From NCBI GenBank assembly GCA_963765675.1, contig CAVXXK010000001.1, forward strand, positions 160,001 through 224,000: a DNA stretch of 64,000 bases, read 5' to 3'. This DNA comes from an uncultured delta proteobacterium (GTDB lineage Bacteria > Desulfobacterota > Binatia > Binatales > Binataceae). The position numbers and the translations under genes are program-made. Below, piece by piece: positions 3,799 to 26,275 of this stretch (positions within the stretch are counted from its first letter, which is position 1; each line of letters starts with the position of its first letter). The notes under the pieces are model-generated. The model had not been told where the DNA came from. It did no database searches and was given only the letters and a program-made list of their open reading frames with translations.

Positions 3799-6700
3799 AT
3801 GTGGATCGTACAACTCGCCCTTAGAAGGCCGGTCACCATCGCGGTGATGGCGGCGTTGATGCTGCTGCTCGGGATCGTCTCGCTCAGCACCATGAACTTC
3901 GACATCTTTCCGGCGATCGATGTGCCAGTGGTCGATCTGGTCTGGAATTATCCGGGACTCTCCGCCGAAGAGATGGAGCAGCGCGTCGTCAATATCAGCG
4001 AGCGCGCGTCCTCGACCACCGTCAACGGCGTTGATCATATCGAGTCGGTATCGCTCAACGGCATCGGGCTTTTGAAATTCTACTTTCAGCCCGGCGCCGA
4101 CACCGCGCTCGCGATCGCGCAGCTTACTTCCGTTTCCGAGGCGATCAAAAATATTCTGCCGCCCGGGATCAACCCGCCCAGCGTGATCGATTACAACGCG
4201 ACCAATGTGCCGGTCGTGTACATCGTCTATTCAAGCGAGATCCTATCCCAGAGCCGGATTTACGACTTTGGCGCGAATTTCGGACGCCTGTTCCTGTTCA
4301 CGATTCCCGGCCTGTCGACGCCCGCGCCGTTCGGCGGCGCTCAGCGCCAGGTGATGGTTAATATCGATCCGTCGCAGATGTACTCGCGCGGCGTGTCGCC
4401 TGCCGACGTGGTCAATGCGCTCCAGCGGCAGAACGTGATCATCCCGGGCGGCACCGCAAAGATCGGCAACACCGAGTATGACGTGGTGATGAACGGCAGC
4501 CCGGTCACCGTCGCCGCGCTCAACCGCCTGCCGATCAAGTACGTGGACGGCGCCCCGGTGTATATCGGCGACGTCGCGAAGGTCAGCGACAGCCACGCGG
4601 TGCAGACCGACGTAGTGACGGTCGACGGCAACCCCGCGACCTACATGCTGATTCTGAAGCATCCAGCGGCTTCGACCCTCAGCGTAGTTGATGCGGTCAA
4701 GAAGGTGATGCCGCAGATGCGCGCGATCGCGCCCAAGGGGCTGGATATCAGCCTCGCGTTCGATCAATCGGTGTTCGTCCGGCGCGCACTCGACGACGTG
4801 CTGCAGGAGGGCGTGCTCGCCGCCGCTTTGGTCGGAGTGATGGTGCTGCTGTTCCTCGGCTCATGGCGCTCGACGCTGATCGTCATTCTGTCGATCCCGC
4901 TTGCGATCTTCACTTCGATCGTCGGGCTCAAACTTTCCGGACAGACGATCAACATCATGACGCTCGGCGGACTCGCACTCGCGGTCGGGATGCTGGTGGA
5001 CGACGCCACCGTCGAGATCGAGAACATCCATCGCAACCACTCGATGGGCAAGCCGCTCGGCGTCGCGATTCTTGACGGAGCGCGTCAGATAGCGGTCCCC
5101 ACGTTCGTCGGCACGCTTGCGATCTGTATCGTGTTCTCGCCCGTCATCGGACTTTCCGGAGTCGCGCGCTTTCTGTTCATGCCGCTCGCGCTGGCGGTGG
5201 TGTACGCGATGCTGGCGTCGTACCTGCTCTCGCGCACTCTCGTGACGAGCATGGCGCTGCATCTGCTCGCGGAGGAGCCGGAGGAGCATCATGCAAGCGG
5301 ATGGCTCGGCGTCATCACGGTCGGTTTCGAGCATTGGTTCGAGCGCCAGCGTTCGCGCTACGAGCGCGGCCTCACCAGTGTGATGCGGCATCGCGGGCTA
5401 GTGCTCGGATGCATCAGTGTGATCGTCGTCGCCTCGATGCTGCTGATGCCGCTGGTGGGCGAGGATTTCTTTCCGAAGGTCGACACCGGGATGATCCGCC
5501 TGCACGTGCGGGTTCCGGTCGGCACCCGGATCGAGGAGAGCGCGCGAATCATGAACGGAGTCGAGCGCACGATTCGATCGGTGATTCCGCAAAACGAACT
5601 CGCGCTGATGACCGATCATATCGGGCTGCCGGTCTATTGGGCACTGCTGTTTTACCAGACCGATTCGATCGGCCCGCAGGACGCAGACCTGCAGATTCAG
5701 CTCACGGAAAATCATCATCCGACTGACGGCTATATCAAGGCGATTCGCAGCGCGGTCCATCGCAATTTCCCCGACGTTACGATCTATCCGCAAGCCGCCG
5801 ACATCATCAGCCAGGTGCTGAGCTTCGGGTTGTCGGCGCCGATCGACGTGCAGATCGTAGGAAAAGATCTCTCGAGCGATTTCAAAATCGCCGAGGAGCT
5901 GAAGTCTCAGGTCGAAACAATCCCCGGCGCCGCTGACGTGCGGATCGCGCAGGTGCTCAATTATCCGACGCTGCGGGTCAAGGTCGATCGCGACAAGGCC
6001 GTCCAGCTCGGCATCTCACAGCTCGACGTCACCAGCAGCATCCTGACCTCGCTCAGCTCGAGCGTGGTGACTTCGCCCAACCAGTGGCTCGACACGAAAA
6101 ACGGCGTCAGCTACAGCGTTGCGGTGCAGACGCCGCAGCATGAAGTCGATTCGATCCAGGCGATAGGCCGCACGCCGATAACCGGCACGCTACCCAACAC
6201 GCAGCCCGGTGATCCGCAATTTCTTTCCAACCTGTCCGGCGTCAGCCATGAAATCCAGGCGCAGGGCATCAACCATTACACCGTGCAGCGCGTAGTCGAT
6301 TTGAATTTGGGCGTCGAGGATCGCGACCTCGGCAGCGTGACCGACGCGGTGCAGAGGAAGATCAACGCGCTCAAGGACGTGCCGCGAGGAACCAGGATCG
6401 CAATCGCCGGCGAAAGCGCCGCGATGCATCAGTCGTTCAACAGCATGGCGTCGGGGCTGATCCTCGCGATCATCCTCGTCTATCTGCTGATGGCGACCAA
6501 TTTCCAGTCGTGGCTCGACCCTCTGATCATCATGATGGCGGTGCCGGGCGCGCTGGCCGGTGTGCTGTGGATGCTGATGTTCACGCACACGACGGTGAAC
6601 GTCGAATCGATGATGGGCACGATCATGGCCGTCGGGGTGGGCGTCGCCAACGGCAACCTGCTCATCACCTTCGCCAACGACCTGCGCGAGCAGGGGCTCG

Positions 6701-21494: not shown

Positions 21495-22151
21495 TCAAAG
21501 AAACTCGAGCCGGGCGCTCAGTCCCGACTCGCCGCCCGTCACGACGATATAGCCGCCGCCCTTGAACGGTCCGGCGTTGAAGATGCGCGTAGGGCCGATC
21601 ATGTCCTCGCCCGCGGACTCATGGATATGGCCCGAGATGCAGATGTCGGGCTTGAACTCCTCGATAAACCGCCGCGCGGCGGTGCTGCCGACCGATTTAC
21701 CCGACGATATCCGATCGCATTTGGTATCGATCGGCGGCGGATGACAGATCATCAGCGCGGGACGGATGCCGGAAATCTGCGCGTAGCCCGCGCATAGCGC
21801 GGCGTAGATTTCATCTTCGGTCAACTCGGTCGGAGTGTGGAACGGCGTGATATTCGAACCGCCGCATCCGAAGATCCCGATCCCGTTAACGATTCGGCCC
21901 GTTCCATGAAGCGCGATTCCCTCGGCCTCAAGAAACGGAATCGTCTCGCGCCGATCGAGGTTGCCCGGCAGCGCGAGGATATTGGGACATGCGCGGCGAA
22001 CGTCATCGAGGACCACGCGCATCTCGTCCGGTCCGCCAAAGTTGGTCAAATCTCCCGACAGGATAACAAGATCGCAATCGCGCATGACGGAGCCCATCCG
22101 CTCAAGATTGCGCGTAGCCATATGCACATCACCGAACGAGACGATCTTCAT
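21495..22151 (-). CDS. Metallophosphoesterase (Icc-related)
   Basis: GDVH, SGDLT, PGNLD, HPPP and GHIHE. Confidence 0.9.
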   Translation of the reverse strand: MKIVSFGDVHMATRNLERMGSVMRDCDLVILSGDLTNFGGPDEMRVVLDDVRRACPNILALPGNLDRRETIPFLEAEGIALHGTGRIVNGIGIFGCGGSNITPFHTPTELTEDEIYAALCAGYAQISGIRPALMICHPPPIDTKCDRISSGKSVGSTAARRFIEEFKPDICISGHIHESAGEDMIGPTRIFNAGPFKGGGYIVVTGGESGLSARLEFL

Positions 22152-22247
22152 CGGACATCCACCACGATTCGAGCTTACCGGAGCGGGGACTGACCGGGTA
22201 GTCCGCGCGTCGCCACTGACACAGGCTTAAGCGAAGATCACGCGGGA

Positions 22248-22274
22248 GACGGCCGGTTCGCAAGCCGCCCCTAC
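22248..22274 (-). repeat. GTAG-tagged REP-like palindrome
   Basis: Reads GTAGGGGCGGCTTGCGAACCGGCCGTC on the minus strand; related copies at 49865-49893 (+) and 56861-56888 (-). Confidence 0.65.
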
Positions 22275-22315
22275 GAAGACAGATTTGTTTCGCTTCGTTT
22301 CGAACGGGCGGATCG

Positions 22316-22413
22316 CCTGCAGATACCCTCTCCCTCCGGGAGAGGGCGGCGCGGCGCGATGCTTGCGATTCTTTTTCGCAAGCATCGTGACGCGCGGGTG
22401 AGGGTGCTGCTCT
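22316..22413. repeat. Left inverted arm (boxC-like) flanking the DUF559 gene
   Basis: CCCTCTCCC-tcc-GGGAGAGGG, an internal 12-bp hairpin and GGGTGAGGGTGCTGCTCT; reverse-complement match to 22794-22890. Confidence 0.85.
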
Positions 22414-22781
22414 TACTCCTCCAGCACCGCAAGAATTTGCTTGATGACGGTATCCGTTTCGCGTAAGACCACATCGTTCCCGAACCTGACTACGCGATAG
22501 CCTTGCGTCTCGAGGAACTCCTCGCGCTCATCGTCGTAAACCTGCTGCTCGACATGCTGTCCGCCATCGAGCTCGACCACCAGCTTTCTTTCAACGCAGC
22601 AGAAGTCGGCGATATAAGGACCGATCGGGAATTGGCGGCGGAATTTCAGGTCAGCGAAACGCCGTCCGCGTAGATGTTTCCAGATCGTACGCTCCGCGTC
22701 GGTCATTTCGCGGCGCAGTTTGCGCGAGTTTGTGAGCGCCTTCGCCGAGAGTAGTGGCTTATGCGTATGTGTGCGCTTCAT
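22413..22781 (-). CDS. DUF559 family Vsr-like endonuclease
   Basis: LRREMTDAERTIWKHLR..KFRRQFPIGPYIADF..LVVELDGGQH..GYRVVRF. Confidence 0.9.
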   Translation of the reverse strand: MKRTHTHKPLLSAKALTNSRKLRREMTDAERTIWKHLRGRRFADLKFRRQFPIGPYIADFCCVERKLVVELDGGQHVEQQVYDDEREEFLETQGYRVVRFGNDVVLRETDTVIKQILAVLEE

Positions 22782-22793
22782 GAGAAAAGGCGC

Positions 22794-22890
22794 AGAGCAG
22801 CACCCTCACCCACGCGTCACGGCGATTGCTGAAAAGAAGCAATCGCCGCGCCGCGTCGCCCTCTCCCGTGGGGAGAGGGTATCTTGCAGG
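22794..22890. repeat. Right inverted arm (boxC-like) flanking the DUF559 gene
   Basis: AGAGCAGCACCCTCACCC, an internal 11-bp hairpin and CCCTCTCCC-gtg-GGGAGAGGG. Confidence 0.85.
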
Positions 22891-22899
22891 AAATCCAGA

Positions 22900-22937
22900 A
22901 TATAAATCGGAAGGGCGGTGTTGCCACCGCCCTTCCC
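22900..22937 (-). terminator. Probable terminator of the nrdJ transcript
   Basis: Minus strand reads GGAAGGGCGGTG-gcaa-CACCGCCCTTCC followed by GATTTATATT. Confidence 0.6.
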
Positions 22938-23176
22938 CGTCACCACATCCGCCACCCCACCACACACTTTTCGGCGCGCCACGCGCGCTGCGTTTTGGGT
23001 GGGCCCCGGAGGAATCACCAAGCCGATTCCGCGATTACCAAAGTCTCCCCGAAAATCGTCCGATGATTCTCCCCGACCGCGCCGGAAACCGGATTAAAGT
23101 TTTCGTCCGCCCCCATCCCCGCCGTCCGATTCCTCCAGCGCCCTCACTCCCCACAACCTCCGGGGCCCCAAATTCG

Positions 23177-23437
23177 TCAGGCCTGTGCGGCGGCAGGATG
23201 CCGCGCGCATTCAGGGCCAATCGTTGATACCGTTTCTTCCGTCTCGACTATCTCCCACTCATCGCGGCCCTCGAGCTCGAACACCGCCGTGCATTCATCG
23301 CATTCGATCCACGCGCGGCTCGGCTCGCACTCGTCGCCGTCAACCCTCGCGATCAGATGCAGTCCTTCCGCGCGATGACTCCGCGCGATCGCGCCGAACG
23401 CCTGCGACTCGAAAATCTCCTTGCTTCCACCGCTCAT
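23177..23437 (-). CDS. Small hypothetical protein with CxxC, directly downstream of nrdJ
   Basis: GAGGAGG RBS overlapping the nrdJ stop; WIECDEC; acidic composition. Confidence 0.6.
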   Translation of the reverse strand: MSGGSKEIFESQAFGAIARSHRAEGLHLIARVDGDECEPSRAWIECDECTAVFELEGRDEWEIVETEETVSTIGPECARHPAAAQA

Positions 23438-23449
23438 CACCGCACCTCC

Positions 23450-26275
<2,826 letters not shown>

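Follow-up and report, generated by a model that had tools for sequence, protein, structure and literature searches.

We found that a small gene for a predicted nuclease of the DUF559 family forms a cassette with two inverted arms of the BoxC/PIT/TM type, the mirror purine blocks of both arms facing the gene. The cassette occupies the intergenic space that separates a metallophosphoesterase gene from nrdJ in the window, by which we mean the whole 64,000-nt stretch analysed from the genome of an uncultured Binataceae bacterium. We propose that the nuclease and the repeats would be partners in the manner of REP/RAYT systems, with another type of enzyme and another DNA structure. The mechanism is inferred, and we give this reading a probability of about 0.5.

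The DUF559 gene (22413–22781, minus strand) encodes 122 amino acids and is enclosed by arms of ~97 nt each. The left arm, 3′ of the gene (22316–22413, plus strand), aligned with the reverse complement of the right arm, 5′ of the gene (22794–22890, minus strand), over 113 columns at 90% mean column identity, and the ungapped inverted repeats detected between them extended over 84 nt at 70% and 46 nt at 87%. An earlier note on this DNA had described the arms as imperfect reverse complements enclosing the gene, which is correct. Its placement of the borders was also accurate, as the third base of the stop codon is the last base of the left arm, and the right arm starts 12–13 nt upstream of the ATG (13 bp in the note). 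A promoter-like site lies at 22899–22927 on the minus strand (GTGGCA, 17 nt, TATATT); it is a consensus match only, with 9/12 matches, and 1 was found compared with a shuffle mean of 0.3. Transcripts from this candidate promoter, if it is active, would begin where the upstream arm has its outer edge. An Rfam scan of 22000–23600 gave nothing above threshold, the best match being a plant microRNA model (E 0.027) far under its gathering score.

Each arm consists of three parts, all of which we located in both arms as the note had outlined them: CCCTCTCCC-NNN-GGGAGAGGG (22326–22346 and 22859–22879), an internal hairpin, and a third block, GGGTGAGGG. The left arm is a long-form BoxC/TM-type repeat of subtype A and class T1 (covariance model match G000:C1:182322-182415, E 3.1e-20), and its parts follow one another on the plus strand as GATA, pyrimidine/purine hairpin, internal hairpin, mirror purine block, TGCTGCTCT. 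Its pyrimidine-run/purine-run hairpin (CCCTCTCCC TCC GGGAGAGGG, 22326–22346, plus strand) is the duplex part of the triplex motif, and its 9 pairs are invariant in 20/20 aligned copies. Loop 1 is 3 nt long, and loop 2 (49 nt on the left, 47 nt on the right) contains the GC-rich internal hairpin. In the left arm, this hairpin is of subtype A (22349–22395, plus strand; GATGCTTGCG / CGCAAGCATC; 20-nt arms, 90% complementary), and in the right arm it is of subtype B (22812–22856, minus strand; GGCGATTGCT / AGCAATCGCC; 19-nt arms, 89% complementary). The left third block, GGGTGAGGG at 22396–22404 (plus strand), is the mirror of GGGAGAGGG with one A replaced by T and is a candidate third strand of a purine-motif triplex; in the right arm, it appears as CCCTCACCC at 22803–22811. 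The right arm belongs to the same repeat family, as subtype B and class T1 (covariance model match G000:C1:182792-182883, E 2.7e-20), and it reads on the minus strand, with the mirror block toward the ATG and a pyrimidine-run/purine-run hairpin (22859–22879, minus strand) that is CCCTCTCCC GTG GGGAGAGGG on the plus strand. The hairpin pattern occurs 2 times in the window, whereas two occurrences were seen in 0/100 dinucleotide shuffles (shuffle mean 0.00).

The arms are ordinary members of a dispersed repeat family, of subtypes A and B. A covariance model with a genome-wide count of solo copies, which had been proposed as a check, revealed at least 130 copies in the 4.5-Mb genome (130 model matches), and exact hairpins numbered 86 genome-wide compared with 0 for a reversed control. 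The inspected copies are intergenic, and the commonest unit is a single arm, not a pair. Three terminal classes, set apart by a terminal extension of about 9 nt, are represented by 35 (T1), 27 (T2), and 9 (T3) copies. Among the 78 complete elements, 29 are of type A, 31 of type B, and 18 short or other. The internal hairpins of A and B differ in three pairs changed on both sides, with pairing kept in 20/20 aligned copies. The claim that these hairpins conserve structure over sequence is not supported, as the difference represents two subfamily haplotypes and not many independent events. Nor did the two internal hairpins arise as compensatory changes at this locus; they represent the subtypes common genome-wide, with the 29 A and 31 B elements noted above.

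Could the third block simply pair with the pyrimidine run? The earlier note had suggested that GGGTGAGGG pairs alternatively with CCCTCTCCC. The symmetry of the present arms allows such pairing, and the left arm shows it when folded to minimum energy, but relatives do not conserve it as a rule. In 49 asymmetric arms, the mirror fit was better in 32 and the direct copy in 2, with ties in 15, and the third block mirrors the purine arm within 1 mismatch in 67/73 loci of relatives. Because the third block fits as a mirror rather than a direct copy, the conserved feature is triplex-type symmetry and not alternative Watson–Crick pairing. When folded as single-stranded DNA with tools that model Watson–Crick pairs only, all four arm strands were far more stable than shuffles (z −5.0 to −7.0; 0/200 shuffles as stable).

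Descriptions of BoxC/PIT/TM repeats go back to the 1990s. The resemblance to enterobacterial boxC, which the note had pointed out, was confirmed by the match of the arms to the BoxC/PIT/TM triplex-motif architecture and by an E. coli copy found beside ycjD. As in those repeats, a pyrimidine-run/purine-run hairpin (7 nt or more; here 9 bp) is followed by a mirror purine block, and the third block follows the rule of G opposite G and A or T opposite A. The likeness extends to multiple intergenic copies, single or as inverted pairs of two subtypes, and to the marking of loci that vary between close relatives. Unlike the published BoxC/PIT/TM repeats, most copies here carry a 40–47-nt GC-rich hairpin in the second loop, and a 3-nt loop 2 was present in only 2/78 complete copies. 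The published triplex searches described in the main text of Holder et al. 2015 used loops of 1–6 nt (ITxF) or 0–10 nt (an earlier search) (PMC4666352); consequently, long-form copies are missed by those searches, as the window shows. Since their loop 2 of 47–49 nt exceeds these limits, we classify the arms, by sequence architecture, as a long-form variant of the BoxC/PIT/TM intrastrand-triplex repeats and as predicted triplex formers. The same main text describes TM repeats as forming stable triplexes in vitro and as markers of unstable loci, cites the earlier BoxC/PIT work of Bachellier and of Hoyne and Maher, and reports from earlier work that PIT elements had no promoter or terminator activity (PMC4666352). 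It names no partner protein, states that neither transposase nor integrase remnants were found near TMECO sites, and gives no function or origin for these repeats (PMC4666352).

The protein is a predicted nuclease of the Vsr-like (EDxHD-type) PD-(D/E)xK family and a member of Pfam DUF559 (PF04480), with a match that covers residues 15–121 and profile positions 3–109 of 109 (E 2.5e-43; 146.8 bits vs. a cut-off of 20.6). The Pfam scan of the protein gave no other family above cut-off, with no transposase family and no separate DNA-binding domain. The gene is of the YcjD type: the NCBIfam YcjD model PRK09767 matched with E 2.7e-32, yet under its equivalog cut-off of 218 bits, and E. coli YcjD is 49% identical to the protein here. 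PDB 3HRL was matched with E 1.2e-37, and PDB 3R3P with E 4.8e-5 (profile). The residues D59, E70, D72, H76, and D83 are invariant across 15 aligned relatives, and a catalytic role for them can be assigned by the description of the related enzyme in PMC3239194. The gene is held by purifying selection, as judged from dN/dS values of 0.09–0.17 at dS 0.39–0.75 against three orthologues (rows with G010 were left out owing to a one-codon misalignment). At E ≤ 1e-10, 44 of 72,556 plasmid and 2 of 50,697 phage records contained homologues. Many of the plasmid entries are megabase-sized replicons or entire chromosomes classed as plasmids, so the gene does not usually reside on ordinary mobile vectors. 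PADLOC gave no meaningful defence-system match (best DpdF, E 0.0011). YcjD/DUF559 proteins are widespread and have a nuclease fold; a structure has been solved for the family, but to our knowledge no substrate is known, and we found no report of activity for any YcjD-type protein in the open-access literature on DUF559 and ycjD.

How specific is the link between the gene and the repeats? An enrichment of arms at DUF559 genes, put forward earlier as a check, was evident both in this genome and across phyla. All five DUF559 paralogues of the genome (5/5) have pyrimidine/purine palindromes on both sides, the fifth with a different but analogous motif. The three intact paralogues carry one terminal class each, T1, T2, or T3, and two further paralogues are decayed. 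Positions no more than 150 nt from a model match make up about 1.1% of the genome, yet 3/5 of the genes have a match directly upstream. In loci of many phyla, gathered with a single protein as the query so that the sample leans toward closer relatives, the hairpin was upstream of the DUF559 gene in 44/65 evaluable loci compared with 0/65 shuffles. Similarly, flanking inverted repeats with a score of at least 14 were present at 26/65 loci, compared with 4/65 mismatched pairs and 0/65 shuffles, and, relative to the hairpin, the mirror block is found toward the gene in 67/73 loci and on the far side in 20/73. A CCCCTTCCC-type repeat with 18 copies in the genome has no cognate gene, which counts against a partnership. 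An unrelated M23 peptidase gene is likewise bracketed by facing A and B arms.

Furthermore, the gene and the hairpin tend to occur together. Among 31 relatives, 16 have both features, 12 have neither, 2 have only the gene, and 1 has only the hairpin. Over 301 genomes of the phylum, co-occurrence is strong but imperfect: at least 5 hairpin copies were found in 42/74 genomes with a strong DUF559 match vs. 34/227 without one (odds ratio 7.5, kinship ignored). Against a partnership, of the 54 genomes in which 10 or more copies were counted, 22 lack a strong DUF559 match, and a search of 5 such repeat-rich genomes (31 to 89 copies, all draft assemblies) with a protein query found DUF559 in 0/5. The family search is not fully sensitive, since it missed the E. 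coli control although YcjD scores E 1.4e-49. Zero copies of the searched hairpin were found in 13/74 genomes with a strong DUF559 match; these 13 may have other repeat variants instead.

Two members of the same protein family from distant bacteria, E. coli YcjD and the Neisseria gonorrhoeae ‘endonuclease-like protein’ (3HRL), also have genes that adjoin TM-type repeats. At E. coli ycjD, a full TM repeat lies ~170 nt downstream and a degenerate one extends across the stop codon; unlike in our cassette, the repeats are only at or after the 3′ end, together with a duplicated remnant of the 3′ end of ycjD itself. On either side of the gonococcal gene (PDB 3HRL) there is a TM-type repeat, but the flanking copies are direct and not inverted. 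In the open-access literature searched, we found nothing linking DUF559 or YcjD to BoxC/PIT/TM repeats.

REP/RAYT systems consist of dispersed palindromic repeats, tagged with GTAG, and an HUH tyrosine transposase. As in these systems, the gene here is low-copy and mostly chromosomal, and a dispersed palindromic repeat flanks it in inverted orientation; gene and repeat co-occur, and separate gene copies go with separate repeat classes. On the other hand, the enzyme is a PD-(D/E)xK Vsr-like nuclease and not an HUH (Y1) tyrosine transposase, the repeat is of the triplex type and not a GTAG-tagged REP, occurring mostly as single arms instead of doublets, and any movement here would need other chemistry. 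The DUF559 cassette may work in a REP/RAYT-like manner, but it is not a member of REP/RAYT. The earlier note had proposed a REP/RAYT-like partnership, which is partly supported. In its favour is the specific gene–repeat link, with the 5/5 paralogues, the 44/65 loci, and the at least 130 copies, whereas the synteny of the cassette in most close relatives is a possible point against it by the note’s own standard.

How might such a partnership operate? In unwound DNA, an arm would fold into its hairpin, and the mirror block could then enter the major groove, the internal hairpin bringing the block near. The DUF559 protein, probably as a dimer like I-Bth0305I, which is described as a stable dimer that cuts a pseudopalindromic site (PMC3239194), would recognize this fold along with the class-specific terminal extension of ~9 nt (T1, T2, or T3), and would nick or cut at the folded arm. 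Repair or replication restart from other copies would then lead to single arms being copied, homogenised, or relocated, and only rarely to movement of the whole cassette. More broadly, and with somewhat less than even odds, DUF559/YcjD proteins might be structure-specific partner nucleases of the BoxC/PIT/TM repeats, recognizing DNA folded into a hairpin plus mirror strand (a triplex) and driving the repeats’ copying, homogenisation, and rearrangement as a new class of selfish or domesticated element.

Comparison within the genus shows that the repeats are gained, lost, and recombined on a species timescale. A search of relatives for an empty site, another check proposed earlier, gave a mixed result, as one same-genus relative has a footprint-type site but the cassette is syntenic in most close relatives. 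The cassette is conserved within the genus under purifying selection, yet it has also been inverted, deleted to a hairpin footprint, and pseudogenised. In G005, the DUF559 gene contains a stop codon, and an inversion of ~16 kb has its breakpoints within inverted copies; in G009, the gene-less allele is a single degenerate hairpin footprint and not an intact facing pair. The orthologues of G001, G003, and G005 have a damaged upstream-arm hairpin despite the conserved gene, which counts against a partnership. One solo site that is filled in G003 is empty in G005, and a further solo copy is missing from G001, G003, and G009; we saw no target-site duplication at the only clean filled/empty pair, and the second site was too diverged for mapping. 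T1 copies numbered 26 and 20 in relatives with an intact gene, 17 in the one with the stop codon, 17 in the one with the gene deleted, and 1 in a relative in which no T1 gene was found. Terminal-class counts, therefore, track the state of the gene only loosely in these six genomes, three of them fragmented. The gene itself is low-copy and mostly inherited vertically. With respect to insertion sequences and MITEs, no transposase family was found in the cassette, single arms and not pairs are the common unit, and the one clean insertion showed no duplication. The interval is also an insertion hot spot, with other insertions beside the cassette in relatives.

Could the gene instead be a selfish passenger of repeats that spread by other means? 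As a free-standing homing endonuclease, DUF559 would cut the repeat or a facing pair, and break repair would copy the gene into cut repeats, so that it would always lie between inverted arms. The protein shares with the EDxHD homing endonuclease I-Bth0305I (3R3P) a Vsr-like catalytic core with conserved E, D, H, and D residues, and the profile match to that catalytic domain (E 4.8e-5) is in line with this explanation. Gene-less facing pairs also exist, with 4 inspected in this genome and 5 inverted A+B pairs in E. coli according to the main text of PMC4666352, repeat-rich genomes without the gene are known, and pseudogenes such as that of G005 and the two decayed paralogues here would fit a homing cycle. 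Nevertheless, we consider homing unlikely. The four facing pairs remain unfilled alongside intact nuclease genes of the same classes, and their spacers resemble neither one another nor the cassette interior to a significant degree, the observed score being reached in 17 to 251 of 300 shuffles; by this test, we also rejected the facing pairs as deletion derivatives of the cassette. The gene-less allele of G009 is one degenerate hairpin and not a facing pair, and a single site has been kept under purifying selection across dS of about 0.4–0.75. Unlike I-Bth0305I, moreover, the protein lacks the N-terminal NUMOD/HTH DNA-binding region, and its gene stands alone between repeats instead of residing in an intron or intein.

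A nuclease that serves the host, processing repeat hairpins or triplexes at, for example, stalled forks, with the flanks being further repeat copies and the enzyme being of use only to genomes that have the repeats, would agree with the purifying selection and vertical inheritance, with the gene–repeat co-occurrence, and with the G005 inversion that breaks in inverted copies. It would also fit the TM repeats that form triplexes in vitro and mark unstable loci, as stated in the main text of PMC4666352, and the induction of Caulobacter VsrA by DNA damage, as described for that protein in PMC12907096. However, it leaves unexplained the fixed orientation of the arms (67/73 loci) and the separate terminal class of each intact paralogue, and the gene is absent from many repeat-rich genomes; it is, in our estimate, quite improbable.

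The gene might also encode a very-short-patch-type mismatch repair nuclease tied to cytosine methylation, a role proposed for Caulobacter VsrA, with the repeats being incidental or acting in cis as promoter, terminator, or insulator. VsrA of Caulobacter crescentus (CCNA_02930) is Vsr-like, has a DUF559 domain, and is the one family member for which the literature searched offers in vivo data; its description in PMC12907096 ties it functionally to the methyltransferase ScmA, whose gene is unlinked to its own. The Vsr-like fold with conserved predicted catalytic residues, the single C5 cytosine methyltransferase gene of this genome (C1:955625-956716), and the promoter-like site at the outer edge of the upstream arm would be compatible with such a role. 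Unlike the protein here, VsrA is presented in that description as a methylation-linked repair or damage nuclease with no tie to repeats (PMC12907096), which counts against a partnership. We regard this explanation as very doubtful, since it accounts neither for the flank motif across phyla nor for the at least 130 gene-less copies, five paralogues with their own kinds of arm stand against a single methyltransferase, and PIT elements showed no promoter or terminator activity in the earlier work cited in PMC4666352. That short genes with two intergenic borders simply collect repeats by chance or at an insertion hot spot, as the bracketed M23 peptidase gene and the other insertions in this interval might suggest, is extremely improbable given flanked paralogues in 5/5 cases vs. 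~1.1% of the genome near a copy, the hairpin at 44/65 cross-phylum loci vs. 0/65 shuffles, and the fixed orientation.

If the partnership of nuclease and repeats is real, two long-standing orphans, the BoxC/PIT/TM repeats and YcjD/DUF559, would explain each other. Bacterial repeat families with a resident enzyme would then have a second, mechanistically different route, with a Vsr-like nuclease in place of a transposase and a range from Binatia to E. coli, Neisseria, Chloroflexota, and Patescibacteria. The DUF559 protein would be a natural protein that reads a non-B DNA structure, and the strain-to-strain variability of loci with these repeats would be accounted for.

In metagenome contigs of four runs (at most 0.27 of the sampled words), we observed few read joints (a skip of 379 with 40 other letters in between, and one strand switch), which were unassignable to this locus. 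The depth of the arms in these contigs was far above that of the gene, as expected for a repeat common to many organisms.

The DUF559 gene at 22413–22781 (minus strand) is a 122-aa ORF whose product matches the whole Pfam DUF559 domain (E 2.5e-43); its neighbors are a metallophosphoesterase gene on one side and nrdJ, which encodes a class II ribonucleotide reductase, on the other. The arm at 22316–22413 and the reverse complement of the arm at 22794–22890 align over 113 columns with a mean column identity of 90%; the coordinates and junctions of arms and gene in the earlier note were correct on re-checking. Both arms consist of a 9-bp hairpin, one side of which is all-pyrimidine and the other all-purine (CCCTCTCCC NNN GGGAGAGGG), a longer GC-rich hairpin and a third block, GGGTGAGGG. 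The window holds two occurrences of the hairpin pattern, a number reached in 0 of 100 shuffles, and as single strands the arms surpass shuffles in folding by 5 to 7 standard deviations. Beyond the cassette, nrdJ ends at 23450 (minus strand), and ~500 nt separate its stop codon from a terminator-like hairpin at 22909–22936. The stretch 22904–23700 is 92–93% identical in the relatives G009 and G005, above the neighboring phosphoesterase gene (89–90%). Rfam has no match in this region, which may contain a small gene or RNA.

The cassette is a nuclease gene with inverted triplex-type repeats, accompanied by a large gene-less family of the same repeat kind. The exact hairpin is present in 86 copies in the 4.52-Mb source genome (reversed control, 0), and complete elements, in which the third block is no more than 62 nt from the hairpin, number 78. 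The covariance model and genome-wide count proposed in the earlier note, with the model built from 20 copies, gave at least 130 matches at E 1e-3 or better, a lower bound because 150 of the 7914 first-look candidates were scored. The two internal hairpins of the window, which had been taken as evidence that structure rather than sequence is conserved, do differ and yet pair, but they are simply genome-wide subtypes A (29 of 78 complete copies) and B (31 of 78), the other 18 being short or of another type. Across the 20 aligned copies, types A (n = 11) and B (n = 9) have different bases at both positions of three stem pairs, and a fourth pair, at columns 28 and 75, alternates by eye between A-T and G-C. 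Because all 20 copies remain paired despite these double-sided differences, the internal stem appears to be kept as a structure. However, the differences are two haplotypes rather than many independent events, and a palindrome copied from its own complement would also arise perfectly paired.

Other palindromes were seen in the same genome. A CCCCTTCCC..GGGAAGGGG hairpin is present 18 times, and in relatives this hairpin precedes TTAGGGGTTAGG and flanks DUF559 genes (loci L049, L061 and L062); its cognate gene was not found in the source genome and is present in the relatives G007, G009 and G010. A further 10 copies are of the CCTCCCCC..GGGGGAGG type, with a broken cognate gene at C3:61144–61486. 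At C1:892330–892640 (about 4330–4640 of locus L144), a second, unrelated palindromic repeat, TGTCATTCCCGC ... GCGGGAATGACA, surrounds a triplex-type copy, and its G009 counterpart has an inverted inner segment and further insertions.

The arms are of the BoxC/PIT/TM "intrastrand triplex" repeat kind, in which a pyrimidine/purine hairpin precedes a purine block that can serve as third strand in the groove (Holder et al. 2015, PMC4666352). In that account, E. coli MG1655 carries 23 TM copies, all intergenic, including five inverted pairs that each join subtype A with subtype B, and no transposase or integrase remnants were found near them; the words ycjD, DUF559 and endonuclease are absent from its main text. 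We examined 110 DUF559 loci (L033–L142), 73 of which have an upstream pyrimidine/purine hairpin, for a block mirroring the purine arm (G matched by G, A by A or T) within 75 nt and with at most one mismatch. Such a block lies on the gene side of the hairpin in 67 of the 73 loci and on the far side in 20. Among the 49 arms that are not self-mirroring, the mirror beats a direct copy in 32, loses in 2 and ties in 15, with a perfect mirror in 36 and a perfect direct copy in 9. These counts support a triplex-type symmetry. They reject, as the conserved feature, the alternative pairing of the third block with the pyrimidine arm proposed earlier, because a block that mirrors the purine arm is unable to form such pairs. 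Unlike the published TM repeats, which have short loops, the window arms have a second loop of 47–49 nt containing a hairpin, and the classical 3-nt loop was seen in only 2 of the 78 complete copies. The published searches limited loops to 1–6 or 0–10 nt (PMC4666352), and these limits would miss such long-form copies.

The source genome has five DUF559 places, all five with pyrimidine/purine palindromes on both sides. Three paralogues are intact, and each is bracketed by arms of its own terminal class, the classes being distinguished by the bases that follow the third block: T1 (TGCTGCTC, 35 copies) at the window gene, T2 (CGGCC, 27 copies) at a gene on contig 15 and T3 (ACCGACAG, 9 copies) at a gene at C1:1606786. 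There is consequently one terminal class per intact paralogue. Of the two decayed paralogues, one is truncated after RFWDT and the other has an in-frame TAA and an analogous but different flank motif, CCTCCCCC / GGGGGAGG, with mirror block AGGAGGGGG.

The association of gene and repeat crosses phyla with a fixed orientation. Among 31 relatives, 16 have gene and hairpin, 12 neither, 2 the gene only and 1 the hairpin only. In a phylum sample of 301 genomes at least 90% complete, at least five copies of CCTCTCCC-N2-10-GGGAGAGG occur in 42 of 74 genomes whose DUF559 hit is strong (E at most 1e-20) versus 34 of 227 others (odds ratio 7.5, uncorrected for kinship). A homologue search with a single protein gave 80 loci, 65 with enough flank; the closest are in records titled Candidatus Binataceae, and the remainder include Alpha-, Beta- and Gammaproteobacteria, Chloroflexota, Nitrospirales, Elusimicrobia, Patescibacteria and one planctomycete. 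The enrichment of arms beside homologues that the earlier note had proposed to look for was found: a perfect hairpin of at least 7 bp lies within 250 nt upstream in 44 of the 65 loci and in none of 65 shuffled flanks. A perfect hairpin occurs within 200 nt downstream in 21 and on both sides in 14, and inverted repeats of score 14 or more flank 26 of 65 loci; mismatched up/down pairs reach that score in 4 of 65 cases and shuffles in 0 of 65.

YcjD of E. coli MG1655 (PF04480, E 1.4e-49) is 49% identical to the window protein. By eye, its gene has a degenerate hairpin across the stop codon, a full TM copy ~170 nt downstream and no TM-type repeat upstream. Between the stop codon and the next TM copy (L143 4250–4440) lies a duplicated remnant of the last ~45 nt of ycjD, as if it were the leftover end of an older cassette. 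The gonococcal gene whose product is a chain of PDB 3HRL (identity by eye) is, also by eye, flanked by two TM-type motifs in direct orientation, one per side. It lies between two direct copies of a ~100-nt unit (L194 210–260 and 820–870, Neisseria gonorrhoeae), each ending in a triplex-type motif, the downstream one a perfect fit to the mirror rule. The 2.17-Mb record is listed among plasmids and looks like an entire chromosome.

The cassette occupies the same interval in the same-genus relatives G001, G003 and G005. Comparison of the metallophosphoesterase–nrdJ interval for an empty site, another proposed check, revealed in G009 one damaged outer hairpin (GATA-CCCTCTCCC-GGA-GGAG-TATC), no gene and nothing more. 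Because each outer hairpin is a palindrome, the pair counts both as direct and as inverted repeats, and the G009 allele reads as a probable deletion between them. In the unpublished genome G010, the gene has the opposite orientation and the arms keep their places, A next to the phosphoesterase gene and B next to nrdJ, an arrangement that, on G010 alone, would fit inversion by recombination between the arms; the start codon of the gene, again in G010 alone, is changed from ATG to ATA. The G005 gene has an in-frame stop, and the more distant G004 and G008 have different content beside the phosphoesterase gene. Among G000 (the source genome), G001, G003 and G005, dN/dS is 0.09–0.17 at dS 0.39–0.75, so the gene was retained by selection for most of that time. 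Identity among these four is 91–96% for the downstream arm, 84–89% for the gene and 75–91% for the upstream arm, whose outer hairpin is damaged in G001, G003 and G005 and whose internal hairpin is changed from B to A in G001. An insertion of ~0.8 kb separates the cassette from the nrdJ terminator in G005 (L022 941–1450) and G003 (L025), and its 169-aa reading frame has no Pfam match; G010 has another gene-sized insert on the opposite side of the cassette.

The gene is under purifying selection, and the repeats turn over and recombine. One intergenic site is empty in G005, carries a solo copy in G003, a copy nested in another palindrome in G000, an inverted copy with further insertions in G009 and an unrelated insert in G001. 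The G003/G005 pair sets the insert limits as TTATA, hairpin ... third block, TGCTGCTCT, with no target duplication visible at this site. A second solo copy is missing in G001, G003 and G009 (29–32 nt versus 155 in G000), and a third is common to G000, G005 and G009. In a comparison of L145 (G000:C3:490000–509999), the locus of the second copy, with G005:C1:1433189–1447894, a ~16-kb segment is inverted in G005, with both breakpoints in oppositely oriented repeat copies.

Could the nuclease act on its own repeat class? We favor, at a probability of about 0.5, a partnership like that of REP/RAYT, in which such action would lead to copying, homogenization or rearrangement of the repeats; the likeness would lie in the pairing of enzyme and repeat, whereas the enzyme and the DNA structure are different. 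A 15-member profile matched two structures, PDB 3HRL (E 1.2e-37) and 3R3P (E 4.8e-5), the latter being the catalytic domain of I-Bth0305I, a homing endonuclease, and D59, E70, D72, H76 and D83 are invariant in 15 relatives. I-Bth0305I is described as a stable dimer of the 'EDxHD' family that leaves a two-base 5' overhang when it cuts its pseudopalindromic site (PMC3239194). That a homing-type gene parasitizes pre-existing repeats is an unlikely alternative, for which this match speaks. Few plasmid records (44 of 72,556) or phage records (2 of 50,697) carry a homologue. Somewhat less probable is a host nuclease that resolves repeat structures, a reading that fits the purifying selection on the gene and leaves unexplained why each intact paralogue is flanked by its own class. 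VSR, DUF559 and DUF2726 are placed in one group (PMC3424549), and Vsr is detected by a YcjD profile (PMC1189080). Caulobacter VsrA, the sole DUF559-domain protein with in vivo data in the literature searched, is reported as damage-inducible and harmful without the cytosine methyltransferase ScmA, and its authors propose a role in mismatch repair (PMC12907096). A methylation-linked repair nuclease with incidental flanks is improbable here. The source genome has one C5 methyltransferase gene, ~770 kb from the cassette. Chance is very unlikely beside the shuffled controls.

The repeats and the protein family are each already known; no link between them was found in the openly available papers searched, the main text of Holder et al. 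2015 among them. New from the window are the long-form repeat, the three paralogues matched to three terminal classes, the history of the cassette within the genus, with inversion, deletion and decay, and a count of exceptions to the pairing of gene and repeat.

Several counts speak against a strict partnership of gene and repeat. Among 54 genomes with at least 10 hairpin copies, 22 have no strong DUF559 hit, and the searched hairpin is absent from 13 of the 74 DUF559-positive genomes. With the window protein as query, DUF559 was found in none of five repeat-rich genomes (31–89 copies), one of which has classical TM copies; the five are all drafts, and assembly easily drops a gene that lies between repeats. 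The whole-genome PF04480 search missed its E. coli control despite the score of MG1655 YcjD, so 'DUF559 not found' in that search can be a miss. T1 counts in relatives are 26 and 20 with an intact T1 gene, 17 with a stop codon and 17 with the deletion; G004 has one T1 copy, and the T1 gene was not found there. T2 and T3 counts follow gene state even less well. The CCCCTTCCC-type copies without a cognate gene in the source genome and a peptidase gene between facing arms likewise speak against a strict partnership. The latter locus (G000:C3:175970–177810, L160) holds a Peptidase_M23 gene (356 aa) between facing A and B arms, with a further inverted repeat of ~40 nt just inside them.
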